A DNA stretch of 64,000 nucleotides from an uncultured virus (IMG/VR IMGVR_UViG_3300025767_000007) (Duplodnaviria > Heunggongvirae > Uroviricota > Caudoviricetes): IMG/VR virus record IMGVR_UViG_3300025767_000007; one strand, 5' to 3'. The translations under genes and the position numbers were made by a program. A model generated the notes under the pieces. It saw nothing but the letters and a program-made list of their open reading frames with translations. It made no database searches and was not told the origin of the DNA. Shown here piece by piece: positions 4,203 to 64,000 of the stretch (the first letter of the stretch is position 1; every line of letters begins with the position of its first letter).

Positions 4203-6044
4203 ATGGCAAATACCATTATTTTAAAAAGATCCGCAACACAAAACAACATACCTACTACCTCACAACTTGAGCTTGGTGAAGTAGCAATCAACACATATGA
4301 CGGTAAAGTTTACATTAAAAAATCTGTCTCTGGTTCAGCCAGTATTGTTGAAGTTGGTCCTGTTGTAAGTGTCAACGGTTCTACAGGAGCAGTAACAATT
4401 GGAACAGATGAAACTGCAGAAGGTTCAACTAACCTTTATTACACAGATGCGAGAGTAAGAGCGGCAATTTCCGCAGGAACTGGCATCACATACAATTCAA
4501 CATCAGGTGAGATTCAAACAGCTCAAGATATAACAACTGCAGGATCACCATCATTTGCTGGTTTAACATTAACTGGCAATGCAGAAACACTAAGTCTTAT
4601 CCCAGCCTCAGACAACGTATACAGTCTAGGTTCGGCTTCTAAAGCATATGCTGACATTTATGTTGGTCCAGGATCGCTTTACATTAACGGTAAGAAAACA
4701 ATCGAAGACAATTCAAATACAATGACGTTTTCTACAGATTCAGACCAAGATATGAGAGTATCTACATCAGGTTCTGGTTCTGTTGAATTACTTGCAAGTG
4801 GAACAGGTAACATTCAGGTTATGGGAACACTTTCAATACAAACATCAAAGAGAATTGTTGACTCAGCAGGAGTTAATGTTGAATTTGGAGATCCAATTCA
4901 CATGAATTCTAATAAACTTACTAACTTAGCAGAACCTACAGCTAGTACAGATGGTGCAACTAAGAATTATGTTGATACAGCAATTACTAACTTAGTAGAT
5001 GCTTCACCAGCTACACTTGATACATTGAACGAGTTAGCCGCGGCACTTGGTGACGATGCAAACTTTTCAACAACAATTACTACTTCAATTGCAACTAAGT
5101 TAAACTCAGCAGACTATACTGCCTCTGATGTTTTAACTAAAATTAAAACAGTTGATGGAGCCGCATCTGGTTTAGATGCTGACATCTTAGATGGTCAACA
5201 AGGTTCTTATTACCTAGATGCTAACAACTTTACTAACATGCCAGATTATAGTGGTGATTTTTCAAGTAAACTAGACGCATCATCTTATACTGCCTCTGAT
5301 GTTTTAACTAAAATTAAAACAGTTGATGGCGCAGGTTCTGGACTAGACGCTGACTTATTAGACGGTCAATCAAGTGCCTATTATGCAACTGCAAGTTCAG
5401 TAGCTACTAATACTTCAAAATTAGCTACTATTGAGTCTAATGCAACAGCAGACCAAACAGCATCAGAAATCTTAACACTTATCAAAACAGTTGATGGCGC
5501 AGGTTCTGGACTAGATGCTGACTTATTAGACGGTCAATCAAGTGCCTACTACTTAGATGGTAATAACTTTATCAATATGCCGGCAACTGGTGTTACATCT
5601 GTTGCAACTTCAAACGGGTTAACTGGTGGTACTATTACTGGAACAGGAACTTTATCCATGTCTGGTTCTTACACAGGAACATTTAATGTTACTGGTGAAA
5701 TTAAGGCAACTGGCGAAGTAACAGCTTACTTCTCGGATGAAAGACTTAAGAAAGATATTGTACCTGTAACTGGAGCACTTCAAGGTGTTATGGCAATGGG
5801 CGGATATACTTATAAAGCTAATGATCTTGCCGCAGAGCTTGGTGTTGAAAGAACTGACAATCAAATTGGACTTCTAGCACAAGAAGTTGAAGCACAATTT
5901 CCTGAGTTAGTTACAGAGTCAGCACTAGCAGGCTATAAGACAATTAGATACGATAAGATGGTTACAGTTTTAGTTGAAGCAATGAAAGAGCAACAAGCAA
6001 TGATTGAGCAACTACAAGCTGATGTAAAGAAGACTTTACATTGA
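4203..6044 (+). CDS. Tail fibre protein with Mtd-N-like N-terminus and C-terminal peptidase S74 intramolecular chaperone
   Basis: N-terminal IILKRS...LELGEVAINTYDGKVYIK; three VDGAxSGLDADxLDGQ repeats; SDERLKKDI...GLLAQEVE..FPELV..Y followed by a coiled coil. Confidence 0.85.
   Translation: MANTIILKRSATQNNIPTTSQLELGEVAINTYDGKVYIKKSVSGSASIVEVGPVVSVNGSTGAVTIGTDETAEGSTNLYYTDARVRAAISAGTGITYNSTSGEIQTAQDITTAGSPSFAGLTLTGNAETLSLIPASDNVYSLGSASKAYADIYVGPGSLYINGKKTIEDNSNTMTFSTDSDQDMRVSTSGSGSVELLASGTGNIQVMGTLSIQTSKRIVDSAGVNVEFGDPIHMNSNKLTNLAEPTASTDGATKNYVDTAITNLVDASPATLDTLNELAAALGDDANFSTTITTSIATKLNSADYTASDVLTKIKTVDGAASGLDADILDGQQGSYYLDANNFTNMPDYSGDFSSKLDASSYTASDVLTKIKTVDGAGSGLDADLLDGQSSAYYATASSVATNTSKLATIESNATADQTASEILTLIKTVDGAGSGLDADLLDGQSSAYYLDGNNFINMPATGVTSVATSNGLTGGTITGTGTLSMSGSYTGTFNVTGEIKATGEVTAYFSDERLKKDIVPVTGALQGVMAMGGYTYKANDLAAELGVERTDNQIGLLAQEVEAQFPELVTESALAGYKTIRYDKMVTVLVEAMKEQQAMIEQLQADVKKTLH
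5115..5548 (+). repeat. Three intragenic direct repeats in the tail fibre gene
   Basis: 5115-5158 is identical to 5286-5329 (44 nt). 5316-5380 matches 5484-5548 with one mismatch. Confidence 0.9.
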
Positions 6045-7571: not shown

Positions 7572-7944
7572 AAAAGAATCCACACCATCTATGCAACTTT
7601 TTTAAGTTAATCCCAGCACTAATATGAAATTCTGGTAGAGAAACATTATTAACAACATTCCTCATTAATACACCATCAATGACTGTACTTTTTACAAGTT
7701 TAGCCTTTAGGTTAGTATCTTCGCATATAATTTGTATAATTGGATGATTCCAGTTTTCGTCAAATATAATCTTTCTGGCTTCTAAGTACCAACGTTCTGT
7801 GTAGCAAATATTATCTTTATATAACTTGTTTAACAGAGGATTATTCAATCTTTCTTCGTTACACAATGTAAATTGCATCTGTTTATGGGGACCACTGTAA
7901 AACTCAGCTGGAATTTTATCTTTAACTAATTTTAAACTCATCAC
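7519..7944 (-). CDS. Hypothetical protein
   Basis: 141-aa ORF, last gene of the minus-strand operon; overlaps the glycosyltransferase 3' end convergently. Confidence 0.6.
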   Translation of the reverse strand: MMSLKLVKDKIPAEFYSGPHKQMQFTLCNEERLNNPLLNKLYKDNICYTERWYLEARKIIFDENWNHPIIQIICEDTNLKAKLVKSTVIDGVLMRNVVNNVSLPEFHISAGINLKKLHRWCGFFSSLPDSTKILVDLNDQC

Positions 7945-27996: not shown

Positions 27997-28425
27997 ATGA
28001 AGGATTTGATGAAAAGAATAGGTCGTTATAGACTTATTTTAGATAGAAATAGTAACGAACCTTACCTAGAAAGATACTATCTATTCTTAAAGGATCGTGT
28101 AAACTTTCCTTTTAACATCTTCCTTCATAAGTTTCTTAGAAGTGACCCGGATGATTTACACGATCATCCGTGGTCATACTTCACTCTTATTCTTAGAGGC
28201 GGATATTGGGAGCATACGTTAGACGGAAAGTACTGGCGAGGACCAGGACACTTTAGAGTATGCAAGGCAAATAGCTATCATAGAATTGAAATAGATCCTA
28301 ATGTTGATGTATGGACATTGTTTATGCCATTTAAGCAAAAACGAGAATGGGGATTTTTAGAAAAAGGTAAGAACTGGGTGCATCACAAGACATACTTGGA
28401 TAAACTTGCTAAAAAAATTAACTAA
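27997..28425 (+). CDS. Cupin-fold protein
   Basis: LHDHPW..LILRGGYWE..YHRI metal-binding cupin pattern. Confidence 0.7.
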   Translation: MKDLMKRIGRYRLILDRNSNEPYLERYYLFLKDRVNFPFNIFLHKFLRSDPDDLHDHPWSYFTLILRGGYWEHTLDGKYWRGPGHFRVCKANSYHRIEIDPNVDVWTLFMPFKQKREWGFLEKGKNWVHHKTYLDKLAKKIN

Positions 28426-54441: not shown

Positions 54442-54840
54442 ATGAAAGGATTCTTTGATATGCATGTTAGTAAACTGGCTATTGTTGCCGCTTTTTCACT
54501 TTCAATGATGTTAATAACATTTAACATAGCAACAGCTCACGAATATTCATACAAGCATTATCATAATTCTCATGATAGTTGGGACGTTGACAGGTATGAT
54601 GATTATAGTTACTATCACAGTGATTATTATAAACGTTATAAAAGAAATGATCGCGAAAGAGAACATTGGGATTGGTATTATGACGATAAGAGTGGCCCAG
54701 AAAGAGAGGACACATATTACATGCCAACACCTTCTCCAATAATCGTGCAACCTGTTCCTCCTATAGGTTATGAAAGAGTTATTGCATATGATAACTTATG
54801 TCATTGCAATATATACGTTCTTGTACCTATTAGACAATAA
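54442..54840 (+). CDS. Exported Tyr/His/Asp-rich low-complexity protein
   Basis: Signal peptide ending IATA, then a Y/H/D/R-rich tract and a Pro-rich segment; the start may be 54460. Confidence 0.65.
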   Translation: MKGFFDMHVSKLAIVAAFSLSMMLITFNIATAHEYSYKHYHNSHDSWDVDRYDDYSYYHSDYYKRYKRNDREREHWDWYYDDKSGPEREDTYYMPTPSPIIVQPVPPIGYERVIAYDNLCHCNIYVLVPIRQ

Positions 54841-54929
54841 TCTTAAAACCCTATCTAGTTTATTCTTTTGATAAATAAAGTTAACATGTGTATAGCACAT
54901 GTTATTAATTAAAAAGGTACAAATAAAAT

Positions 54930-55148
54930 ATGGCAATAGAACTAACAGGCAAAGTAAAATGGTTTCAAGACGCAAAAGGATGGGGTTTTATTAAACCTGA
55001 CGATGGTTCCGATGATGTTTTTGCACACTATTCAGCAATTAATTCGGATGGATTTAAATCATTAAAAGAAGGTCAAGCAGTAACATTTGAAGTAATTCAA
55101 GGTGCTAAAGGACGTCAAGCCGCCAATATCAATTTAATTGAATCTTAA
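54930..55148 (+). CDS. cspA: Cold-shock protein
   Basis: GKVKWF, KGWGFI (RNP1), DVFAHYSAI (RNP2), LKEGQAV and QAAN. Confidence 0.95.
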
Positions 55149-55281
55149 GACTAACTCTCCATAAATTATAACAATAGTAATCTTAAAGACTAAATAGATT
55201 ATGGTAGTACATGTATAGGAACATAGAGTAACTATGCATATAACATCTGTTTACAGAAAATAGATAAGGCATTAGAGATTT

Positions 55282-55779
55282 ATGAGTTTAACTGACTTTA
55301 TCGACAGCAGTATAAGTCGATTCGCAAAATATTATTCTTGGTTTGCATTACTAATGGTATTGTTCGTTGTGATCAATGTCTTGGGAAGATATTTCTTTGA
55401 CATTCGTAATGATTATGCAGTTGATTCAACATGGCAATTATACGGTATGCTTATTATGTTTGGTTGCAGTTATTCATTAGGAAAAGAAGCACATATTAGA
55501 ACAGATCTGTTCTGGAACAATTATAAAGATCGTACAAAAGCAATTATTGACTTTGTAAGTTATCTCTTACTATTCTTTCCTTCATTTGCACTTATCACAT
55601 ACATCAGTTTCAATGATACATCAGCCGCTATTGAGATGAACGAACGTAGTTCTGAAACAATGGCTCAGCTTGTCATCTGGCCTATGAAGATTGGTATTAC
55701 ACTTGGCTTGGTACTTTTGATGGTACAAGCATTGAGTCAAATGATTAAATGTTATAGAAGGATTTTTATCAATGAGTAA
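55282..55779 (+). CDS. dctQ: TRAP transporter small permease
   Basis: Four TM segments, RYFF, HIRTD and WPMK. Confidence 0.9.
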   Translation: MSLTDFIDSSISRFAKYYSWFALLMVLFVVINVLGRYFFDIRNDYAVDSTWQLYGMLIMFGCSYSLGKEAHIRTDLFWNNYKDRTKAIIDFVSYLLLFFPSFALITYISFNDTSAAIEMNERSSETMAQLVIWPMKIGITLGLVLLMVQALSQMIKCYRRIFINE

Positions 55780-57166
55780 TGAATGGCTAGCAATGACAAT
55801 GTTATTTACAATGATTGCCGGCATATTTGTTGGAGTTCCAGTTAGTTTTACACTAACATTCTTAGCATTAATTTTTGGATTAATTGGATTAGGACTAAGT
55901 GTTTTTGATCTTACATATCTTAACCTATTAGGAGGTCTTTCAGACGAAGTACTAATGAGTATTCCTATGTTTATTCTGATGGGTTACATTGCTGAACGAG
56001 CTGGATTGGTAGAAAATTTATTTGAAAGTTTAAAAAAGGTATTTTCAGGCGTTCCTGGTAACCTATACATTGTTGTTATCTGTATTGCAGTATTAATTAG
56101 TTTAGCAACAGGAGTAGTTGGAGCGTCAGTAACATTACTAGGCATTATGGCCGCTCCAAGCATGATTAAACAAGGATATGATGCTAAACTATCAGCAGGA
56201 GTAATAGCAGGAGGCGGGTCTCTTATTATGATTCCTCCATCTATTCCCCTTATTGTAATGGCGCCTACTATGAATCTTAATATCATTGACGTATATGCGG
56301 CCGCAATGGGACCAGGACTAGCGATTGCATTTATGTATCTAGTATACGTTATATACCTTATAAAAACAAAGCCAGAGGTAGCACCTATGATGCCTGTGGA
56401 AGAAAGAGTAGAAATAGATTACAAGTTAATTCTGTTAACATTATGGCATATTGTGCCATTAGCGTCATTAATTCTTATTACACTAGGATCAATGTTATTT
56501 GGACTAGCAACTAGTACAGAAGCTGGTGCATTTGGTGCATTTGGTGCTTTATGTTTAGCCGCTATTAACAGAAAATTAACTTTAACAAATATTCAAGAAG
56601 CATTACTAAAAACTACTAACACGTCAGCAGTAGTAATGTTATTAGCAATTACGTCAACTATATTTGGTGCCGTATTTGCTTCCTTGGGTGGTGACAAAGT
56701 CATTGTATCGGTACTAACTTCGATGCCTATACCCGGATGGGCAATAGTTGGAGCGATATTAGTGTTATGTCATATTTTAGGCTGGCCCTTTGAGTGGCCA
56801 GTGGTAGTGCTAGTGTTCTTACCAATTTTCTTACCAGTATTAATTGATACTGGTGTTGACTTAATTTGGTTTGCGGCCGCTTTGGGTGTTATTTTACAAA
56901 CAGCATATTTAACACCTCCTGTAGCCTTAACCGGATACTACCTAAAACAGGTGGTGCCTTCGTGGGATCTTAAATTAATATTCAAAGCAATGATGCCCTT
57001 TATGTATATTCAGGTTATTTGTGTTGTAATATTGTTTATTACACCTGGCCTTGCAACATGGTTACCTAATTACCTAGCAGAGCAAAGAAAAAATATAGTA
57101 CAAGAAGTACTAGATGATGATGTCAAAGGACAGGAAGTCGACTTCCTAGGTGTCCTTGGACAATAA
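55772..57166 (+). CDS. dctM: TRAP transporter large permease
   Basis: GVPVSF, SIPMFILMG, IPPSI, TSTEAG and LTPPV; many TM helices. Confidence 0.93.
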   Translation: MSNEWLAMTMLFTMIAGIFVGVPVSFTLTFLALIFGLIGLGLSVFDLTYLNLLGGLSDEVLMSIPMFILMGYIAERAGLVENLFESLKKVFSGVPGNLYIVVICIAVLISLATGVVGASVTLLGIMAAPSMIKQGYDAKLSAGVIAGGGSLIMIPPSIPLIVMAPTMNLNIIDVYAAAMGPGLAIAFMYLVYVIYLIKTKPEVAPMMPVEERVEIDYKLILLTLWHIVPLASLILITLGSMLFGLATSTEAGAFGAFGALCLAAINRKLTLTNIQEALLKTTNTSAVVMLLAITSTIFGAVFASLGGDKVIVSVLTSMPIPGWAIVGAILVLCHILGWPFEWPVVVLVFLPIFLPVLIDTGVDLIWFAAALGVILQTAYLTPPVALTGYYLKQVVPSWDLKLIFKAMMPFMYIQVICVVILFITPGLATWLPNYLAEQRKNIVQEVLDDDVKGQEVDFLGVLGQ

Positions 57167-57185
57167 TATTTTGGAGAATAAAAAT

Positions 57186-58280
57186 ATGAAACGTTTCATC
57201 GGAGCGGTATTAGCTACCGCAATGTCATTTGGCGTAGTGGCTTCAGTAGCAACTGCAAATGCCAAAGAACTACAGATTGCATCTAGTTTTGGAGCAATCT
57301 CAACTTTTAACGAGCAAGCAAACTTTCTTGCCGAAAGAGTTAAAGTATTAACTGACGGAAAAATTGATATGAAAATCAGACCTTCCGGCGCATTAGTTCC
57401 TTCTTTTAAGGTTCTAGATGCTACGGCGTCAGGTGCAGTAGATGGTGCATGGACTCAGTCTTATTACTGGGTAGGAAAGTCAAAGACTCTTGCATTGTTT
57501 AATAGTCCGTTAGGAGGACCTTACGGTATGGACGGGATTGATTTCCTAGGTTGGATGTTCCACGGTGGTGGACTTGAATTGTATAACGATTTTTATCAGA
57601 ATGAGTTAAAAATGGATGTACAGGCACTTCCAGCAATGCCTACTCAGAATCAGCCATTGGGTTGGTTCCATCGCCCAATTAAAGATCTAGCAGATCTCAA
57701 AAACTTTAAATGTCGTCAAACTGGCGCCAACGTAGAACTTTATGCTCGTATGGGTATGCAGACTATTGGTATGCCAGGTGGTGAGATTATGGCCGCGGCC
57801 CAAAAGGGTGTTATTAATTGTGCTGAATTCGTTGGTGGTTTAGAAGACGAACGTCTTGGATTTCCTACAGTATGGAAATACTACTACTTGAATTCATTGC
57901 ATGAGCATTCAAATACTGGTGATCTATTGATTAACGGTAAAGTGTGGCGTTCAATGACTAAGCAACAGCAGACCGCTGTTCGTTCTGCCGCTTATGAGTC
58001 ATATCTATGGTGGTTAACTGATATTCAAGCAAAGAATGGTGAGGCACTTGCTAGAATGATCAAAGAGCATGGCGTTAGAGTTATGAAGACTCCAGCAGAT
58101 ATTTTGGTTGCTGAGTTAGAAACTATTGACGAAATGTTAGCAGAAAATGCCGCAAAGGATCCTTATTTTGCAAAAGTACTTGCTTCTCAGAAAGCATGGG
58201 CAAAGAAAGTAGTTCCATTTAAGAACGTAGCATTTACGCCTTATAACTATGCCGCAGATTACTACTGGAAGAAAAAGTAG
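57186..58280 (+). CDS. dctP: TRAP substrate-binding protein (TakP-like) with signal peptide
   Basis: GGAG SD before ATG 57186; signal peptide ending ANA; YYWVGK, GWF, KCR, MPGGE and AEFVG..D. Confidence 0.9.
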   Translation: MKRFIGAVLATAMSFGVVASVATANAKELQIASSFGAISTFNEQANFLAERVKVLTDGKIDMKIRPSGALVPSFKVLDATASGAVDGAWTQSYYWVGKSKTLALFNSPLGGPYGMDGIDFLGWMFHGGGLELYNDFYQNELKMDVQALPAMPTQNQPLGWFHRPIKDLADLKNFKCRQTGANVELYARMGMQTIGMPGGEIMAAAQKGVINCAEFVGGLEDERLGFPTVWKYYYLNSLHEHSNTGDLLINGKVWRSMTKQQQTAVRSAAYESYLWWLTDIQAKNGEALARMIKEHGVRVMKTPADILVAELETIDEMLAENAAKDPYFAKVLASQKAWAKKVVPFKNVAFTPYNYAADYYWKKK

Positions 58281-58300
58281 TTTTAAAAGCATATAACGTT

Positions 58301-58332
58301 AAAAATAGGGTGCTTATGCATCCTATTTTTTT
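58301..58332 (+). terminator. Rho-independent terminator
   Basis: AAAAATAGGGTGC/GCATCCTATTTTT followed by a T tract. Confidence 0.8.
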
Positions 58333-58471
58333 GGCTATAACTTCTATATTTGTTATAAATGTATAAATACACTTGGATAGATACGGTTTAATACCTTATC
58401 GGAAAAAGCCAGTTTTCTATCTCAATGTTACTTGAAGTAATATTGTTTTCTTAAGAAAAAAGGAGTCAATT

Positions 58472-59410
58472 ATGACACAGAAAATTAGATGGGTTCTAGC
58501 ACATGAGCCAATTGAATTATTTCTAAGAGCGGCAAAAGTTTTCGCATCAGAAGTTAATGCAAAAGCAGAAGGCGCACTAGATATTGAAGTTATGACAATG
58601 AGTGAGTATTCTGCAAAGTATAATAACGGTGTTGTTGTTACTAAGCACGAACTTGTTGATATGATTAACAGAGGCGACATTGAAATGTCCCAAACATACA
58701 CAGTAGACATTGGCGAATATGATCACGAATTCCGTGCATTAGATATGCCATTCCTATTTGAGTCACACGACCACGCAACTAAGGTGTTCGAAGGCCCAAT
58801 CGGTCAGTCACTACTAGACGGATTAACAGAATCAGCTGGTGTTAAAGGTTTAGCCTTTACATACTCCGGTGGATATAGAATTATTCCTGGACAAGAAGGA
58901 ATTGATACTATTGAAGATATTAGAGGTCTAAAACTTCGTACTTCATTCTCACCTGTTGCTATTGAGACTTTCAAAGCAGTTGGTGCAGACGTAGTTCCTA
59001 TGGAACTTGAAGAAATGACAGACGCAATCCAAGACAAAGATATTCAAGTAGGTGAGTCTACTTACCCACGTATCTATGCATTAGGACAAGACAGAGTTTC
59101 TAAGGTTATTAACCACACAGAACACTCATTGTTCTTAACAAGCATCCTAATCAACCAAGACTTCTTTGCAACTCTTGGTGAAGAACTACAAGGTATTGTT
59201 GTAGACGCCGCTAAAACAGCCGCTAATTACGAACGTGTAATCAGCATTGAAGACGTTGCACTTACACAAGCTAAAGCTGAAAGCGATGGCATTGAAGTTC
59301 GTAGAATGTCAACAGAAGAAAAAGCTCGTTTCAAAGCCGCTACTGCTCATGTTTATGACATGTTCCCAGAGTTAGCTGGAACAGTTAAGAAGATCCAAGA
59401 TACAAAATAA
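58472..59410 (+). CDS. dctP: DctP-family solute-binding protein lacking a signal peptide
   Basis: LDMPFLF..DHA..V, GGYR, GLKLRT, F.AVGA..VPM and TEH; no hydrophobic leader. Confidence 0.85.
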   Translation: MTQKIRWVLAHEPIELFLRAAKVFASEVNAKAEGALDIEVMTMSEYSAKYNNGVVVTKHELVDMINRGDIEMSQTYTVDIGEYDHEFRALDMPFLFESHDHATKVFEGPIGQSLLDGLTESAGVKGLAFTYSGGYRIIPGQEGIDTIEDIRGLKLRTSFSPVAIETFKAVGADVVPMELEEMTDAIQDKDIQVGESTYPRIYALGQDRVSKVINHTEHSLFLTSILINQDFFATLGEELQGIVVDAAKTAANYERVISIEDVALTQAKAESDGIEVRRMSTEEKARFKAATAHVYDMFPELAGTVKKIQDTK

Positions 59411-59430
59411 AATATCTTAGAACTACTATG

Positions 59431-59460
59431 GAAAAGGCGCTATTTGGCGCCTTTTCTTTT
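59431..59460 (+). terminator. Rho-independent terminator
   Basis: GAAAAGGCGC/GCGCCTTTTC followed by TTTT. Confidence 0.85.
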
Positions 59461-59556
59461 GACTAAATTTTACTAGCCCTTTTTTATGAATAAACAACTA
59501 ATGGTATAAACTCTTTAACACGTTAACTAAATATTAGTAATGGATAGGAGAACATT

Positions 59557-60642
59557 ATGCCGGCAAGAAATCATAGAAATTGGTTAAAGAAACCATTAGT
59601 AGAATATGTTAGTAGCGAAATATATTCAAGTCAAGAAATATTTGAAGAAGAAATCGAAAGTATTTTCTCAAAGGTGTGGGTACCAGTATGTCACATCAGT
59701 GAAATGTATAATAAATTAGATTATCGAACATCTCAGATAGCAGGCATTAATATTTTAGTTTACAATACCGGAGATGGCGTTAAAGCATATCGTAATTATG
59801 GCAGTTGGGCACCTACTGGAACATTGCAAGCACCTATTGTAACAGTTGAACCACAACTACACAGCGAAGTAAAGCACGGAGGTATGGTATGGGTAACACT
59901 TGATCCTAATCCTACACAGAGTGTTGAAGAGTGGACAGCAGGTGCATTTGATTGCATTGCTGATGCTATTGACACAGAAGAACTAGAAATTTTTCATTAT
60001 CATAAAGCAATTATTCCTACCAACTACAAACTATGGCATGATACTAACAGTGAATTCTATCATGACTTCATGCATTACTTTAATCGTGTAACTGGTTTCA
60101 ACGATGAGTATTTTGCTAGAAAGAATATTCCCTTTGATAACGGGCATGTGAACGTTAGTAGTTTTACTGTAAATTATACAGAGTTTGATAAAGAAGGCGA
60201 TAGAGGTGAACTAAGTTTTCCTAACTTACCTCCAAACCAATGGTATATGGTAGACTTGTTTCCTGGCTTTAACTTTAATTTACGTGGTAGTGCATATCGT
60301 TCAGATAGTGTTACGCCACTTGGACCAAATAGTGTACTAATAGAGTTTAGAGGATACGGTTTAAAGAAAGATACTCCAGAAGAAAGACAAACTCGTATTA
60401 AACATCATAATACTATCTGGGGACCGTTTGGCAGAAACTTACATGAAGATCTTTTAGGTGTAACCGGGCAAGGAGCATCAATGTCTCCAGGCACAGAGAA
60501 AAGAAATATTTTACATGGAAGACATGAAAATAGTACTATACATGATGAAGTTGGTATGCGTCACTACTATGCAGAATGGGGAAAATATATGGAGTTAGAT
60601 CCTAGTAATCCAATAAAAGAGGTTGACAAAAAGGCCGCATAG
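59557..60642 (+). CDS. Aromatic ring-hydroxylating oxygenase alpha-subunit-like protein lacking Rieske ligands
   Basis: IY..EIF..E...IF.KVWVPVCH.SE N-terminus, NYKLWHDTNSEFYHDFMH iron motif, LFPG, PLGP, ED and E.GMRHYY..W; no CxH/CxxH. Confidence 0.85.
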   Translation: MPARNHRNWLKKPLVEYVSSEIYSSQEIFEEEIESIFSKVWVPVCHISEMYNKLDYRTSQIAGINILVYNTGDGVKAYRNYGSWAPTGTLQAPIVTVEPQLHSEVKHGGMVWVTLDPNPTQSVEEWTAGAFDCIADAIDTEELEIFHYHKAIIPTNYKLWHDTNSEFYHDFMHYFNRVTGFNDEYFARKNIPFDNGHVNVSSFTVNYTEFDKEGDRGELSFPNLPPNQWYMVDLFPGFNFNLRGSAYRSDSVTPLGPNSVLIEFRGYGLKKDTPEERQTRIKHHNTIWGPFGRNLHEDLLGVTGQGASMSPGTEKRNILHGRHENSTIHDEVGMRHYYAEWGKYMELDPSNPIKEVDKKAA

Positions 60643-60653
60643 TGTTATAAATA
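60623..60653 (+). promoter_or_regulatory. Composite sigma70/late promoter of the tmRNA gene
   Basis: TTGACA-17 nt-TATAAA with an extended TG; the same bases form TATAAATA. Confidence 0.7.
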
Positions 60654-60657
60654 TAAT

Positions 60658-61090
60658 ACAATGGTGAAGCATAACAAACGTTGTACAGGACTCGGGGGCA
60701 GTACCCGACGCCTCCACCATAAACACACGAACGAGGAATGGAACTATAAACAGTTTTAAAGATAAGTGTAGAATATTTTATATCGTTAAAGGTCATCTTA
60801 ACGTATCTACACAAACAATAGAAGATTGTTACGATTATTATTTTAGAAGAATGTGGAATAATAACGAGTGTTACATATACGAAGAAGGTTTTGAAGAATC
60901 GTATCGTGTTTTTATGATGGGGGCGAAATAGGATCGACTGGCAAGTAGTAGGAATGTGGAGTTGTCCGGATGTAAGCTCGGTTAACGCGAACAAAACGAT
61001 AATTGCAAACGATAATTTTGCATCTGAGGATTTTGCCCTAGCGGCTTAGTTACTCTGGGCGGGTACTGCCTGGAAACAGAAGTGCCACTT
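60658..61090 (+). ncRNA. ssrA: Circularly permuted two-piece tmRNA (alphaproteobacterial type); acceptor piece ~60658-60719, coding piece 60919-~61090
   Basis: T-arm TCGGG-GGCAGTA-CCCGA and 3' end CGCCTCC-ACCA come before the 5' end GGGGGCGAAATAGGATCGAC. The acceptor stem has G3.U70. The tag frame 61005-61049 reads ANDNFASEDFALAA*. Confidence 0.93.
60746..60931 (+). CDS. Putative ORF inside the tmRNA intervening segment (non-canonical ATA start or frameshifted)
   Basis: Frame INSFKDKCRIFYIVKGHLNVSTQTIEDCYDYYFRRMWNNNECYIYEEGFEESYRVFMMGAK*; GAGGA 8 nt upstream of the ATA; not in the supplied ORF track. Confidence 0.45.
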   Translation: MNSFKDKCRIFYIVKGHLNVSTQTIEDCYDYYFRRMWNNNECYIYEEGFEESYRVFMMGAK

Positions 61091-61103
61091 AAAGTGAATA
61101 ACA

Positions 61104-61829
61104 ATGATTGAAAATTTCCATACAAGTGACTTTTTAAGGATTCGGTATATGTCTTCTCCGCAAGAACGATCCTCAAATAGAGTACTAATATGGTTTTCTG
61201 GAATAGCTGGAGCACTTGGCTCAAAAGCAAGACCAAGTGGATTTTTTGAAAGTTTAAACATTGATTCAATTATTTGGGTAGATGAGAAAGCACCTTTCTC
61301 TTGGGGCAATAGTATAGATATTGAAGAACTTTGTAAAACACTTCTGCCTCTAACAAAAAATAAAGAATTACTATTTTTTGGAAATTCAATGGGAGGTTTT
61401 CTAGCAATATTACTTTCTAAGTATCTTAAACCTATAAAGGTTATTACAATGAATCCTCAATATAGTGTTCATCCTGATATAATATTAGAAAAGAGATGGC
61501 GTGATTTTATCAATGTAATTACACAGTTTAAACACAAAGATCTGACTAACAGTTTTATTCCTGATACTGATTATGCAATAATGTTTGGCGTTGATGATCA
61601 GGACGAAATGCATTTTAAGTTATTCAATACCCACCGTAATCTTCCAAATGTACAGATTATTAAATTTTTAGATTACAAAACTAACTTAGATAATGCCGCA
61701 CATCAGGCAGGGGTATATCTTAATAGACTTGGCATCTTCCGTGATGTTATTGCAAACTTTTATAATAGTAAATCACTGAAAGAAATTTTTATAAAAAACT
61801 CCGTTAGATATACAGGGCTGAAACATTAA
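61104..61829 (+). CDS. Alpha/beta hydrolase
   Basis: WFSG oxyanion segment, GNSMGG nucleophile elbow, a candidate Asp (DDQD) and a late His (AAHQ). Confidence 0.75.
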   Translation: MIENFHTSDFLRIRYMSSPQERSSNRVLIWFSGIAGALGSKARPSGFFESLNIDSIIWVDEKAPFSWGNSIDIEELCKTLLPLTKNKELLFFGNSMGGFLAILLSKYLKPIKVITMNPQYSVHPDIILEKRWRDFINVITQFKHKDLTNSFIPDTDYAIMFGVDDQDEMHFKLFNTHRNLPNVQIIKFLDYKTNLDNAAHQAGVYLNRLGIFRDVIANFYNSKSLKEIFIKNSVRYTGLKH

Positions 61830-62385: not shown

Positions 62386-63024
62386 ATGCTATCAACATAT
62401 GCAAATAAACAAAATACTCATCTTGTAATAGATACAACAACTAATGGAATATTAATTGCAGTACATAGCAACGTTGTTGCGAATGCAATATGTTTTAAAA
62501 TATTGAATACAGAATCAATGTCTATTAGGCTAGTAGATTTCAATGAGCAAATAAATTCATTGCTTAACCCACAGTTTAATGAGTCTAGTAATTTTATATT
62601 AACTAAAGTTGGACATAACTTAACACCTCAATCAACAGCAAATGTTGGACAACTTGTAAAAAGTACAGATGGCCATGGTCGTTTTGGTGTAGCTAAAATG
62701 TCTGAAGTAACAGATGAGTGGATAGCATTAAGAAAGAAAGCACATAATATCAAAGAAGTTATAGCAAGTAGCGATCTTCGAGTTCTTAGATCAGCAACAC
62801 CGAGCAAACAGTTCTTTGGAGACACTATTACCTTTCCTTTTATTAAAAAAGAACTTGATAAATGTAATCCACAGGAAGATCAATACACAGATGCTATTCG
62901 AGAATGGGCAAGTATAGTAAATGTTCCTGTAAAAAAAGGATTTGAAATGCTATCAGCAGAAAGCAATAATATTACTCATTTGGTTAATAATTCAAGAATA
63001 TTTTGGAGTAAAAAATGTCTTTAA
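62386..63024 (+). CDS. Hypothetical protein
   Basis: 212-aa ORF overlapping the start of the next gene. Confidence 0.65.
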   Translation: MLSTYANKQNTHLVIDTTTNGILIAVHSNVVANAICFKILNTESMSIRLVDFNEQINSLLNPQFNESSNFILTKVGHNLTPQSTANVGQLVKSTDGHGRFGVAKMSEVTDEWIALRKKAHNIKEVIASSDLRVLRSATPSKQFFGDTITFPFIKKELDKCNPQEDQYTDAIREWASIVNVPVKKGFEMLSAESNNITHLVNNSRIFWSKKCL

Positions 63025-64000
63025 ATTATGCTTTTAGTACTAAATTAAAACATGGCAGTGAATATACTAAGAAAGACATTGCTGTTTTTCGTTCTCTCTA
63101 TCGTATTGATCCAGATCCATTTTTAGTTGATAGAACTGGCTCTGTAGTCTTTCCTTTCTCAGAAAACAATTATTTTCCAATGATACAACCGTTATCTAAT
63201 GTTATGAGTTGGGAAGAATGTACAAAAGAGAGAGTTGAAGAACTAATATCCTTTGACAAAGAACTTTATGTTATGTGGAGCGGAGGAATAGATAGTACAT
63301 TAATGCTTTTATCTTTTATGAAATATAGTAATATGAATAATGTTACAATAGTTTTAAACATGGACTCAATTAAAGAATATCCTTATTTTTATAAAAGGTT
63401 TATAGCTCAATGTAATTATAAATTACTGTCAACTGAACAATTAATGAATAATGCATTGCTAAATGACATCAATGGATTAATAGTATCAGCCGAACATGCT
63501 GATCAGTTAGTTGGATCTCCTTTGGCTCAGTTACTTGCAACAACATCAGGTAGAACAATGCTTGGTCTTCCATTTGATGAAGACAATTTCAGCAAATTTT
63601 TAACAAACTTAAATGTTCCAGTACATCATATTGATACAATAATGGAACTCTATAACATTAGTATTAAAAACAGTCCTCGTCCAATTAAGAATATGTGGGA
63701 TCTCTGTTGGTGGCATGGATTTAACTTTAAATGGCAAACCATCTACATGAAACTGGCTATTAGAATAAAAAATCCTTTGAATCTTTTAACTTTCTACTCT
63801 TCGGTAAACTTTCAAAATACCAGTATACACCAAGAAGGTAATACACTTGATCTAAAGAAAGTTTTTAAAGATATAATCGTTAATTATACCGAAGATACTG
63901 AATACCTAAGAAAAGAAAAATTTGCATCTTCAACATTATATTATGGACTAACCTCTTCGACAGGATTAGACAAAAATTGGAATAAAATTAATGTTGATAT
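63015..64000 (+). CDS. PP-loop adenine nucleotide alpha hydrolase (asparagine-synthetase-like), 3'-truncated by the window edge
   Basis: GGAG SD and ATG at 63015; frame open to the window end; MWSGGIDS PP-loop (63273) and SAEHADQLVGS; missing from the ORF track. Confidence 0.8.
   Translation, partial: MSLNYAFSTKLKHGSEYTKKDIAVFRSLYRIDPDPFLVDRTGSVVFPFSENNYFPMIQPLSNVMSWEECTKERVEELISFDKELYVMWSGGIDSTLMLLSFMKYSNMNNVTIVLNMDSIKEYPYFYKRFIAQCNYKLLSTEQLMNNALLNDINGLIVSAEHADQLVGSPLAQLLATTSGRTMLGLPFDEDNFSKFLTNLNVPVHHIDTIMELYNISIKNSPRPIKNMWDLCWWHGFNFKWQTIYMKLAIRIKNPLNLLTFYSSVNFQNTSIHQEGNTLDLKKVFKDIIVNYTEDTEYLRKEKFASSTLYYGLTSSTGLDKNWNKINVD

Follow-up and report, generated by a model that had tools for sequence, protein, structure and literature searches.

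To our knowledge, the binding proteins of tripartite ATP-independent periplasmic (TRAP), ATP-binding cassette (ABC) and tripartite tricarboxylate transporters (TTT) are regarded in the field as extracytoplasmic by definition. Members without a membrane partner have been described for the TTT class: orphan proteins such as the Bug proteins of Bordetella and AdpC of Rhodopseudomonas palustris are presented as carboxylate binders, some of them very abundant, and as exported to the periplasm (PMC5812351). Here we describe a solute-binding protein (SBP) of the DctP family, the receptors of TRAP systems, that has neither a transporter nor an export leader of its own. It is encoded at positions 58472 to 59410 of a 64,000-nucleotide stretch of DNA from an uncultured tailed virus (IMG/VR record IMGVR_UViG_3300025767_000007; the whole stretch is called the window below). 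An initial annotation had taken the product for a stand-alone DctP without signal peptide, perhaps repurposed as a cytoplasmic sponge or sensor for a ligand such as a defence signal, or as a virion or lysate protein that engages host DctQM. We found that the protein belongs to a large, undescribed, transporter-independent branch of the DctP family; full-text literature searches returned no description of a leaderless or phage-borne DctP. As to its function, we give about an even chance to the reading that it is an abundant cytoplasmic binder of a small anionic acid, serving conversion enzymes of the phage and not uptake.

An intact DctP-fold protein without a leader

Three features define the gene and its start.

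58472..59410, + strand: leaderless protein of DctP fold, the main finding; intact open reading frame (ORF), 312 amino acids
58460..58465, + strand: Shine-Dalgarno sequence AAGGAG, spaced 6 nt from the ATG at 58472
58433..58435, + strand: in-frame TGA, 13 codons 5' of the ATG at 58472, excluding an upstream leader

As the initial annotation had it, the protein starts at its first β-strand behind a strong Shine-Dalgarno sequence, strand 1 comprising residues 3–9 of the AlphaFold2 (AF2) model. The objection that an in-frame start further upstream might provide a leader can be set aside: because of the TGA, and because ATG, GTG and TTG do not occur among the 12 codons that separate it from the start codon, no leader can be supplied. 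The maximum hydropathy over ten residues within residues 1–30 is 1.44, compared with 2.15 in the leader of DctP1 (MKRFIGAVLATAMSFGVVASVATANA), the DctP encoded upstream in the window. It is on the in-frame stop, the position of strand 1 and the hydropathy that we call the protein leaderless; the N-terminal signal or lipoprotein peptide of TRAP periplasmic receptors is absent. To judge from its sequence, the protein as encoded cannot be a Sec or Tat substrate, and the earlier claim that the Sec route is closed to it agrees with this. The same phages give classical leaders to the SBPs meant for export, namely to DctP1 in the window, whose Sec-type leader ends in ANA, and to TctC-like neighbours elsewhere, both of the two inspected carrying leaders.

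The protein matches the DctP family hidden Markov model PF03480 with 175.4 bits (cut-off 23.4, E = 2.2e-51) and NF037995 with 126.9 bits (cut-off 50), and falls below the cut-off of the dctP receptor model TIGR00787 (138.6 versus 175.05 bits). The AF2 model, built from 145 sequences (mean pLDDT 97, pTM 0.93), and the Foldseek matches agree on the two-lobe α/β architecture of SBPs, with a hinge and a long C-terminal helix that spans both lobes. The best match is IseP (8t9t; E = 1e-27, TM-score 0.89), followed by 4p47, DctPAm and SiaP. At least 500 PDB entries match at E ≤ 0.001, and the best 50 are all TRAP SBPs, at identities of only 18–27%.

The carboxylate-binding arginine that had been pointed out in GLKLRT is indeed retained. 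This residue, R156, aligns with the arginine of 'glkiRt' or 'glkiRv' in 4p47 and 4n8y and with an arginine kept in nine of nine transporter-linked DctPs; we take it to be the clamp arginine of the family, presumably R147 of SiaP. Compared with canonical DctPs, the subfamily has a signature of its own, consisting of W7, H11, H101, T130-Y-S-G-G134, E195-S-T-Y-P-R200 and E254, and its N-terminal motif is WVLAHEP. Of 237 subfamily rows, 209 have R200, which is absent from all nine canonical rows; R136 occurs in 188 of the 237, and R156 in 137 of them and in 24/24 rows of the viral clade described below; the three arginines occur together in the window protein and in 114 of the 237 rows. In the leaderless clade, H11, T130, S132, H218, E254 and R255 are each kept in at least 102 of 104 rows. 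By position, the signature residues are expected at or close to the cleft. The gene is under purifying selection, as indicated by dN/dS values of 0.12–0.19 against three relatives.

Polar residues that are conserved here and differ from those of canonical DctPs (H11, H101, T130-Y-S-G-G134, R200 and E254) could also be expected of an enzyme derived from a binding protein, in which H11, H101, H218, E254 and R200 would make up a site for catalysis or metal binding, with an organic acid as substrate. Enzymes have evolved from other periplasmic-binding-protein folds, and the leaderless protein is always found among enzymes, not transporters. However, it retains the full two-lobe SBP fold (TM-score 0.89 to an apo SBP) and the canonical clamp arginine, there is no enzyme among its best 50 Foldseek matches, and its very strong codon bias (see below) suits a stoichiometric binder better than a catalyst. 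We consider an enzyme unlikely.

A word-index search returned 1495 relatives. The best 120 of these, 311–330 residues long and starting a few residues before WVLAHEP, are leaderless by inspection in 120 of 120 cases; the longer ones bear short, non-hydrophobic N-terminal extensions that look like upstream start calls. An exhaustive search of cluster representatives yielded 8196 proteins at E ≤ 0.001, of which 175 remained at E ≤ 1e-30; the closest representatives (35–47% identity) share WVLAHEP, some of them being leaderless and others having a leader. IMG/VR holds 43 loci, seven of the window phage lineage and 36 of different phages, with genes for tail sheath, ribonucleotide reductase, ThyX and CHAP proteins in the flanks of the latter. 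A scan of one genome per species, made with an alignment-based query (a single-protein query of the genome contigs gave nothing), found 79 loci. Relatives of about 34% identity or more come mostly from metagenome-assembled genomes (MAGs) of Bdellovibrionota, Elusimicrobia and Polyangia, a few being binned to other phyla; ordinary Bacillota DctPs come in at about 30%. A tblastn search of 50,697 phage records gave no close relative (ten records, all of 21.5–26.6% identity and several of them evidently bacterial DNA). The only DctP entries in BFVD, A0A6J7WI33 (159 aa) and A0A6J7WKL0 (162 aa), are half-length and come from uncultured phages, and the nearest ESM Atlas clusters are 81–100% viral among the few members with a record. 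No fused form was seen at E ≤ 1e-20 in a search for longer homologues, which is weak evidence.

Phylogenetic trees were rooted on nine transporter-linked DctPs. Left out were representatives outside 290–375 residues, the fragment P0228, viral ORFs whose BLASTP match to the query was shorter than 250 residues and genome ORFs below 240, and viral rows with identical cores were merged beforehand. With FastTree on 246 rows, the window protein was placed in an all-viral clade of 24 rows (support 100); the phage homologues do form a signal-less clade. All 32 viral rows fall within a clade of 104 rows (support 92), of which 99 are leaderless; two of the other five rows, L051 and L052, are by inspection artefacts of upstream ORFs. 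In an IQ-TREE 'quick' tree of an 87-row subsample, the window protein belongs to an all-leaderless clade of 24 rows (support 99), made up of ten viral rows, 11 MAG rows and three representatives; two exported Bdellovibrionota proteins form its sister group (92). The position of another leaderless clade, of 12 rows (97), relative to the first is not resolved. Leader loss is derived and old, and may have taken place repeatedly. The repurposing is not the work of this phage: the leaderless state is common to 120/120 nearest relatives and to bacterial genes in ordinary cellular operons.

Separation from the TRAP operon, transcription and codon usage

The leaderless gene stands behind a complete phage operon for a TRAP transporter, and the following elements separate the two or close the gene itself.

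55282..58280, + strand: phage TRAP operon, complete, with overlapping genes dctQ (55282–55779), dctM (55772–57166) and dctP1 (57150–58280)
58301..58330, + strand: terminator hairpin closing the dctQ-dctM-dctP1 operon; 13-bp stem, 3' arm running into a T tract (−18 kcal/mol, z −5.97; 0/200 shuffles fold as well)
58362..58369, + strand: TATAAATA box, 102 nt before the ATG at 58472
59430..59457, + strand: terminator hairpin 3' of the leaderless gene; 12-bp stem (−18.6 kcal/mol, z −5.66)

The distance between operon and gene is 190 nt, with the first hairpin in between. The initial annotation had called the protein divergent from the adjacent DctP, and rightly so: BLASTP gives no significant match between DctP1 and the leaderless protein (best E 6.9). 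We surveyed the flanks of the loci by running phmmer with seed proteins over all flank ORFs. DctM is present at 7/7 loci of the window lineage and at 9/9 canonical DctP loci, and at none of 36 other viral, 29 leaderless MAG and 37 leader-bearing MAG loci (0/102 in total); it is also absent from the flanks of four further MAG loci (three fragments, one mixed) that lie outside these classes. Neither is DctM found anywhere in a 345-kb, 94%-complete phage record that carries the leaderless protein, nor in three less complete records that also have it. In the window the gene has dctQ and dctM nearby, yet a terminator separates it from them and a second, exported DctP is encoded next to it. Since DctM is absent elsewhere and the operon has its own leader-bearing, dissimilar DctP1, the adjacency to DctQM is a peculiarity of the window phage lineage.

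These data bear directly on the possibility of a conventional TRAP receptor that would be exported along a route not yet recognised, or set free at lysis, and would serve a phage or host DctQM. Its place 190 nt behind a complete dctQMP operon, its family fold and its retained arginine would all be in line with such a role. However, 120/120 nearest relatives have no leader, the gene is a separate unit behind a terminator, the operon already possesses an exported DctP1, DctM is missing from all 102 loci of other lineages and from the near-complete genome, and the score against TIGR00787 remains below the cut-off. We give this explanation almost no credence. A role in engaging DctQM, including that of the host as the initial annotation had suggested, is unlikely, DctM being absent from all 36 other viral loci and from the 94%-complete phage.

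The leaderless gene is its own transcription unit, bracketed by the hairpins at 58301–58330 and 59430–59457, neither of which was listed by a simple terminator scan. Contigs from four marine metatranscriptome libraries, belonging to four studies, were placed on positions 55000–61500, a 6.5-kb stretch. One contig per library, of about 1 kb, covers the gene (58384–59399, 58395–59408, 58500–59434 and 58373–59410). Among the contigs listed, none links it with dctP1 or with the downstream gene; such contigs are a weak hint and prove neither transcription nor transcript ends. Contigs of the four libraries also cover the 3' part of the TRAP operon (within 56606–58292; library X6 only 56749–58040). 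The TATAAATA box, presumably the late-promoter consensus of T4, is present in four copies in the window, where about 11 would be expected by chance, and is thus not enriched. By the ORF table, all four copies are intergenic and on the + strand, and one of them precedes the tail-fibre gene at 4203. Within 220 nt upstream of homologues, the box is found in eight of 31 distinct viral regions against a chance expectation of under one, but several of those loci are related. A sigma-70 scan detected no site in the intergenic region 5' of the ATG at 58472. The case for a promoter of the leaderless gene consists of the consensus match, to which the RNA-library contigs beginning at 58373, 58384 and 58395 add a weak hint. 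Of the own promoter and terminator attributed to the gene at first, the terminator and the separate unit stand with the two hairpins.

The frequent C-ending codons noticed earlier proved to be an extreme. The share of C in two-fold NNY codons is 0.60 in the leaderless gene, compared with a window mean of 0.28 (sd 0.088), which ranks it first of 67 ORFs; its C content at third codon positions (C3) is likewise the highest among the 67, and G3 is low. The gene is followed in this ranking by those for a virion protein, the tail tube and a tail fibre. The homologue leads its neighbours in 12 of 20 further viral loci, with GC contents of 0.345–0.478, and is first or second in 16. As the bias recurs across phages over this range of GC, selection for high expression is a likelier cause than a compositional trace of transfer, and the earlier suggestion of high expression suits the codon bias. 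Recent transfer from a GC-richer donor was considered as a source of the bias and rejected, only C3 being raised, with G3 low.

A late-type promoter and the strongest codon bias of the window would equally be accounted for if the protein were associated with the virion or were a late structural or accessory product, such as a decoration protein or a host-surface binder. The TATAAATA box is present, the codon bias is at least that of the tail genes, and, in two loci scanned with Pfam (L020 and L026), the gene follows the tail sheath gene at a distance of a few genes, a pattern of ORF sizes that is repeated in L024, L028 and L041. On the other hand, the position in the genome is not conserved and is mostly among metabolic genes, the bacterial members are found in metabolic operons, and no isolate of the phage collection has a close relative. 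In L020 and L026, moreover, a gene for a TnsA-like endonuclease separates the leaderless gene from the tail genes, suggestive of a hot spot for insertion. Nothing that we found points to the virion, the companions being carboxylate-activating enzymes and oxygenases, and we hold this possibility, also raised by the initial annotation, to be very improbable.

Gene neighbourhoods and candidate partner enzymes

The window is part of the genome of a large marine T4-like myophage, with genes for tail sheath, tail tube, terminase, UvsX, UvsY, a gp32-like single-stranded DNA-binding protein and ribonucleotide reductase; its nearest record is an IMG/VR contig of 244 kb. Two loci downstream of the leaderless gene are of interest for its function.

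59557..60642, + strand: oxygenase alpha-subunit-like gene ('MsmA-like'; PF00848, 1.7e-6)
62386..63998, + strand: pair of orf212 and a PP-loop (SGGIDS) gene; the PP-loop member begins at 63015 and runs off the window end

The commonest neighbour of the leaderless DctP in other phages is a PP-loop protein with an invariant SGGxDS, found in 18 of the 36 other viral loci, often as the next gene, in six of seven window-lineage loci and in seven of 29 leaderless MAG loci. This family has 236 relatives and no Pfam domain. A model of the relative in L033 (pLDDT 95) has its closest structural matches in carbapenam synthetase, beta-lactam synthetase, asparagine synthetase and TsnB9, with moderate scores that concern the synthetase domain alone (E 4e-5 to 1e-3, TM-score 0.31–0.44). 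At the sequence level, the window-lineage PP-loop protein had marginal matches only (LarE, E 0.0037; a PAPS-reductase PHROG, 2.6e-5; in the PDB, at best sortilin with E 0.15, taken as chance), and it was solely through the fold search with the L033 relative that the family could be placed. Complex prediction for the L033 leaderless DctP with its adjacent PP-loop protein gave a score of 0.00, which is evidence neither way. Pairs of a protein of about 212 residues, of no known family, and a PP-loop protein with SGGIDS occur once in the window and twice in tandem in relatives (L008, 10631–14100).

The 36 other viral loci further contain genes for a small DUF2061 membrane protein (17 loci), TctC-like proteins (7), desaturase-like membrane oxygenases (7), ATP-grasp ligases (5), BKACE (3), SDR (3) and AMP-binding enzymes (2). 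The two-helix DUF2061 protein is encoded directly upstream of the leaderless DctP, for example at 7705–7965 in L011, 7505–7729 in L013 and 7474–7737 in L033. In the window, the gene at 59557–60642 shows 72.7% nucleotide identity to a gene annotated as methanesulfonate monooxygenase in Puniceispirillum phage HMO-2011. In its Rieske region the first Cys-His motif (VCHISE) is kept, a second Cys-x-x-His was not seen by eye, and Pfam reports no Rieske domain; the protein may therefore be devoid of a 2Fe-2S cluster. Between uvsX and uvsY, positions 27997–28425 match a PHROG named 'cysteine dioxygenase' (2e-36). Together with the MsmA-like gene, this cysteine dioxygenase-like gene may hint at organosulfur metabolism.

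Close relatives of the window phage have a third DctP gene of about 360 codons, leaderless and a member of a second leaderless clade, between orf132 and a cold-shock gene (G001 C1, 108918–109751; L006 and L007, 3257–4336; L008 and L016, 3219–4325); it is absent from the window, where the gap is at 54840–54930. The window ORF at 54442–54840 encodes 132 residues, a hydrophobic N-terminus followed by a stretch rich in His, Tyr, Asp and Arg, has no family match and is preceded by a TATAAATA box 12 nt upstream of its ATG.

In bacteria, the leaderless DctP closes an operon that runs from an oxalate/formate-type carrier of the major facilitator superfamily (MFS; TIGR04259, 344 bits versus a cut-off of 335) through a soluble 200-residue HxD...H protein to the leaderless gene. 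This arrangement is found at eight of the 29 leaderless MAG loci, on contigs that are bona fide bacterial, with flagellin and HflX genes nearby. An example is L095, 4371–7942 (L055, L057 and L061 are similar); such operons come from Bdellovibrionota and Gammaproteobacteria MAGs, with a Crp-like regulator as first gene.

It is against this background that the sponge or sensor proposed at first, a cytoplasmic protein for a host signal such as a defence second messenger, has to be judged. A leaderless, probably abundant protein with a high-affinity binding fold that is widespread in phages would suit such a function. However, ordinary bacterial operons that encode a carboxylate carrier and an oxygenase-like protein also contain members of this clade, the pocket retains the family's carboxylate clamp, and the neighbours are metabolic: Pfam scans of the flanks, which were made without a PADLOC scan, revealed no defence or counter-defence gene. 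With companions that are carboxylate-activating enzymes and oxygenases, nothing points to a defence signal, and we regard the idea as quite improbable.

A proposed role and its relation to known binding proteins

Taken together, these observations are best accommodated by a cytoplasmic acid binder, for which we infer the location, the class of ligand, the abundance and the hand-over to enzymes. The gene would be a unit of its own, probably late, from which a soluble protein of Venus-flytrap type is made in large, stoichiometric amounts. The protein is a member of an orphan, transporter-independent DctP subfamily (WVLAHEP) and, within it, of a clade from which the export signal has been lost. 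In the infected cell it would close on an acid, the carboxylate being clamped by R156, R136 and the subfamily-specific R200. By capturing, buffering or shielding the acid, the protein would then supply it to phage enzymes for carboxylate activation or oxidation; candidates in the window are the downstream oxygenase-like protein, a hydrolase and the PP-loop ligases. In the window lineage, the acid is perhaps the same one that is imported by the phage TRAP system.

Several observations weigh against this proposal. No ligand could be inferred. Half of the 36 other viral loci (18) have no PP-loop gene in their flanks, and the one in the window is 3.6 kb from the leaderless gene, with other genes in between. 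For abundance, codon bias is an indirect indication, and in four of the 20 other viral loci the homologue ranks only 4th, 6th, 9th and 15th; the RNA-library contigs cannot prove transcription. As for the pocket, R156 is lost in 100 of the 237 subfamily rows, so that part of the subfamily may have another ligand or none. The assignment of R200 and the histidines to the pocket lining derives from sequence position and an assumed correspondence to SiaP numbering. Finally, the deep tree is unresolved: FastTree unites the leaderless rows (the 104-row clade, support 92) and IQ-TREE does not, and the leader state requires no fewer than 14 changes for the full set and nine for the subsample.

A broader proposition, which is speculative and which we rate as rather doubtful, is that the leaderless clade forms a new functional class of intracellular 'receiving' binding proteins, which are stationed at the cytoplasmic face of secondary carboxylate carriers and trap the imported acid, and that phages, late in infection, employ the protein at very high copy number to channel an acid from the host or the environment into an amide-linked product. 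The carriers would be of three unrelated kinds, namely the TRAP system in the window phage, exported TctC-type systems in other phages and the oxalate/formate-type MFS carrier in Bdellovibrionota. Trapping would make uptake effectively one-way and would reserve the acid for dedicated ligases and oxygenases.

Whichever version applies, a large clade has dropped both export and transporter, yet is under strong purifying selection and, in phages, bears a codon signature of very high expression. It comprises dozens of loci of uncultured T4-like and jumbo phages as well as bacterial operons. If its members are cytoplasmic metabolite traps, they point to a means, so far overlooked, by which aquatic phages and Bdellovibrio-like bacteria handle a small acid in the cell, and the ligand that co-purifies with the leaderless protein should name the substrate of the orphan PP-loop ligase islands.

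How does the leaderless DctP compare with known systems? Cyanophage PstS is a phage-borne phosphate-binding protein that is exported and feeds a host membrane transporter. Both are members of transporter binding-protein families carried by phages; the leaderless DctP has no leader and no transporter linkage. The phage sponges Tad1, Tad2 and Acb2 are small oligomeric folds that bind nucleotide-derived immune signals. The possible likeness to them is that of an abundant phage protein sequestering a small molecule in the cytoplasm, with unrelated folds. Unlike the leaderless protein, the orphan TTT proteins, as they are portrayed in PMC5812351, belong to the TctC fold class, are exported and are not viral. 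Much closer are the DctP proteins of TRAP systems (PF03480, NF037995; IseP 8t9t, Oant_4429 4p47, SiaP 2cey/3b50), with which the leaderless protein shares the two-lobe fold (TM-score 0.83–0.89), the clamp arginine in the GLK-x-R-T strand and the match to family models. It differs from them in the lack of a signal peptide, in having no DctQM linkage outside the window lineage, and in the subfamily signature (W7, H11, T130-Y-S-G-G134, E-S-T-Y-P-R200 and E254) that replaces canonical residues. The closest of all are the exported orphan WVLAHEP proteins of Bdellovibrionota, Elusimicrobia and Polyangia, which are uncharacterised and constitute the nearest outgroup of the leaderless clade. They have 35–50% identity, the same signature and DctQM at 0/37 loci; unlike the leaderless clade, they bear hydrophobic leaders, and their neighbours differ, being an AMP-binding enzyme (10/37 loci), MBOAT (8/37) and methylmalonyl-CoA mutase (5/37).

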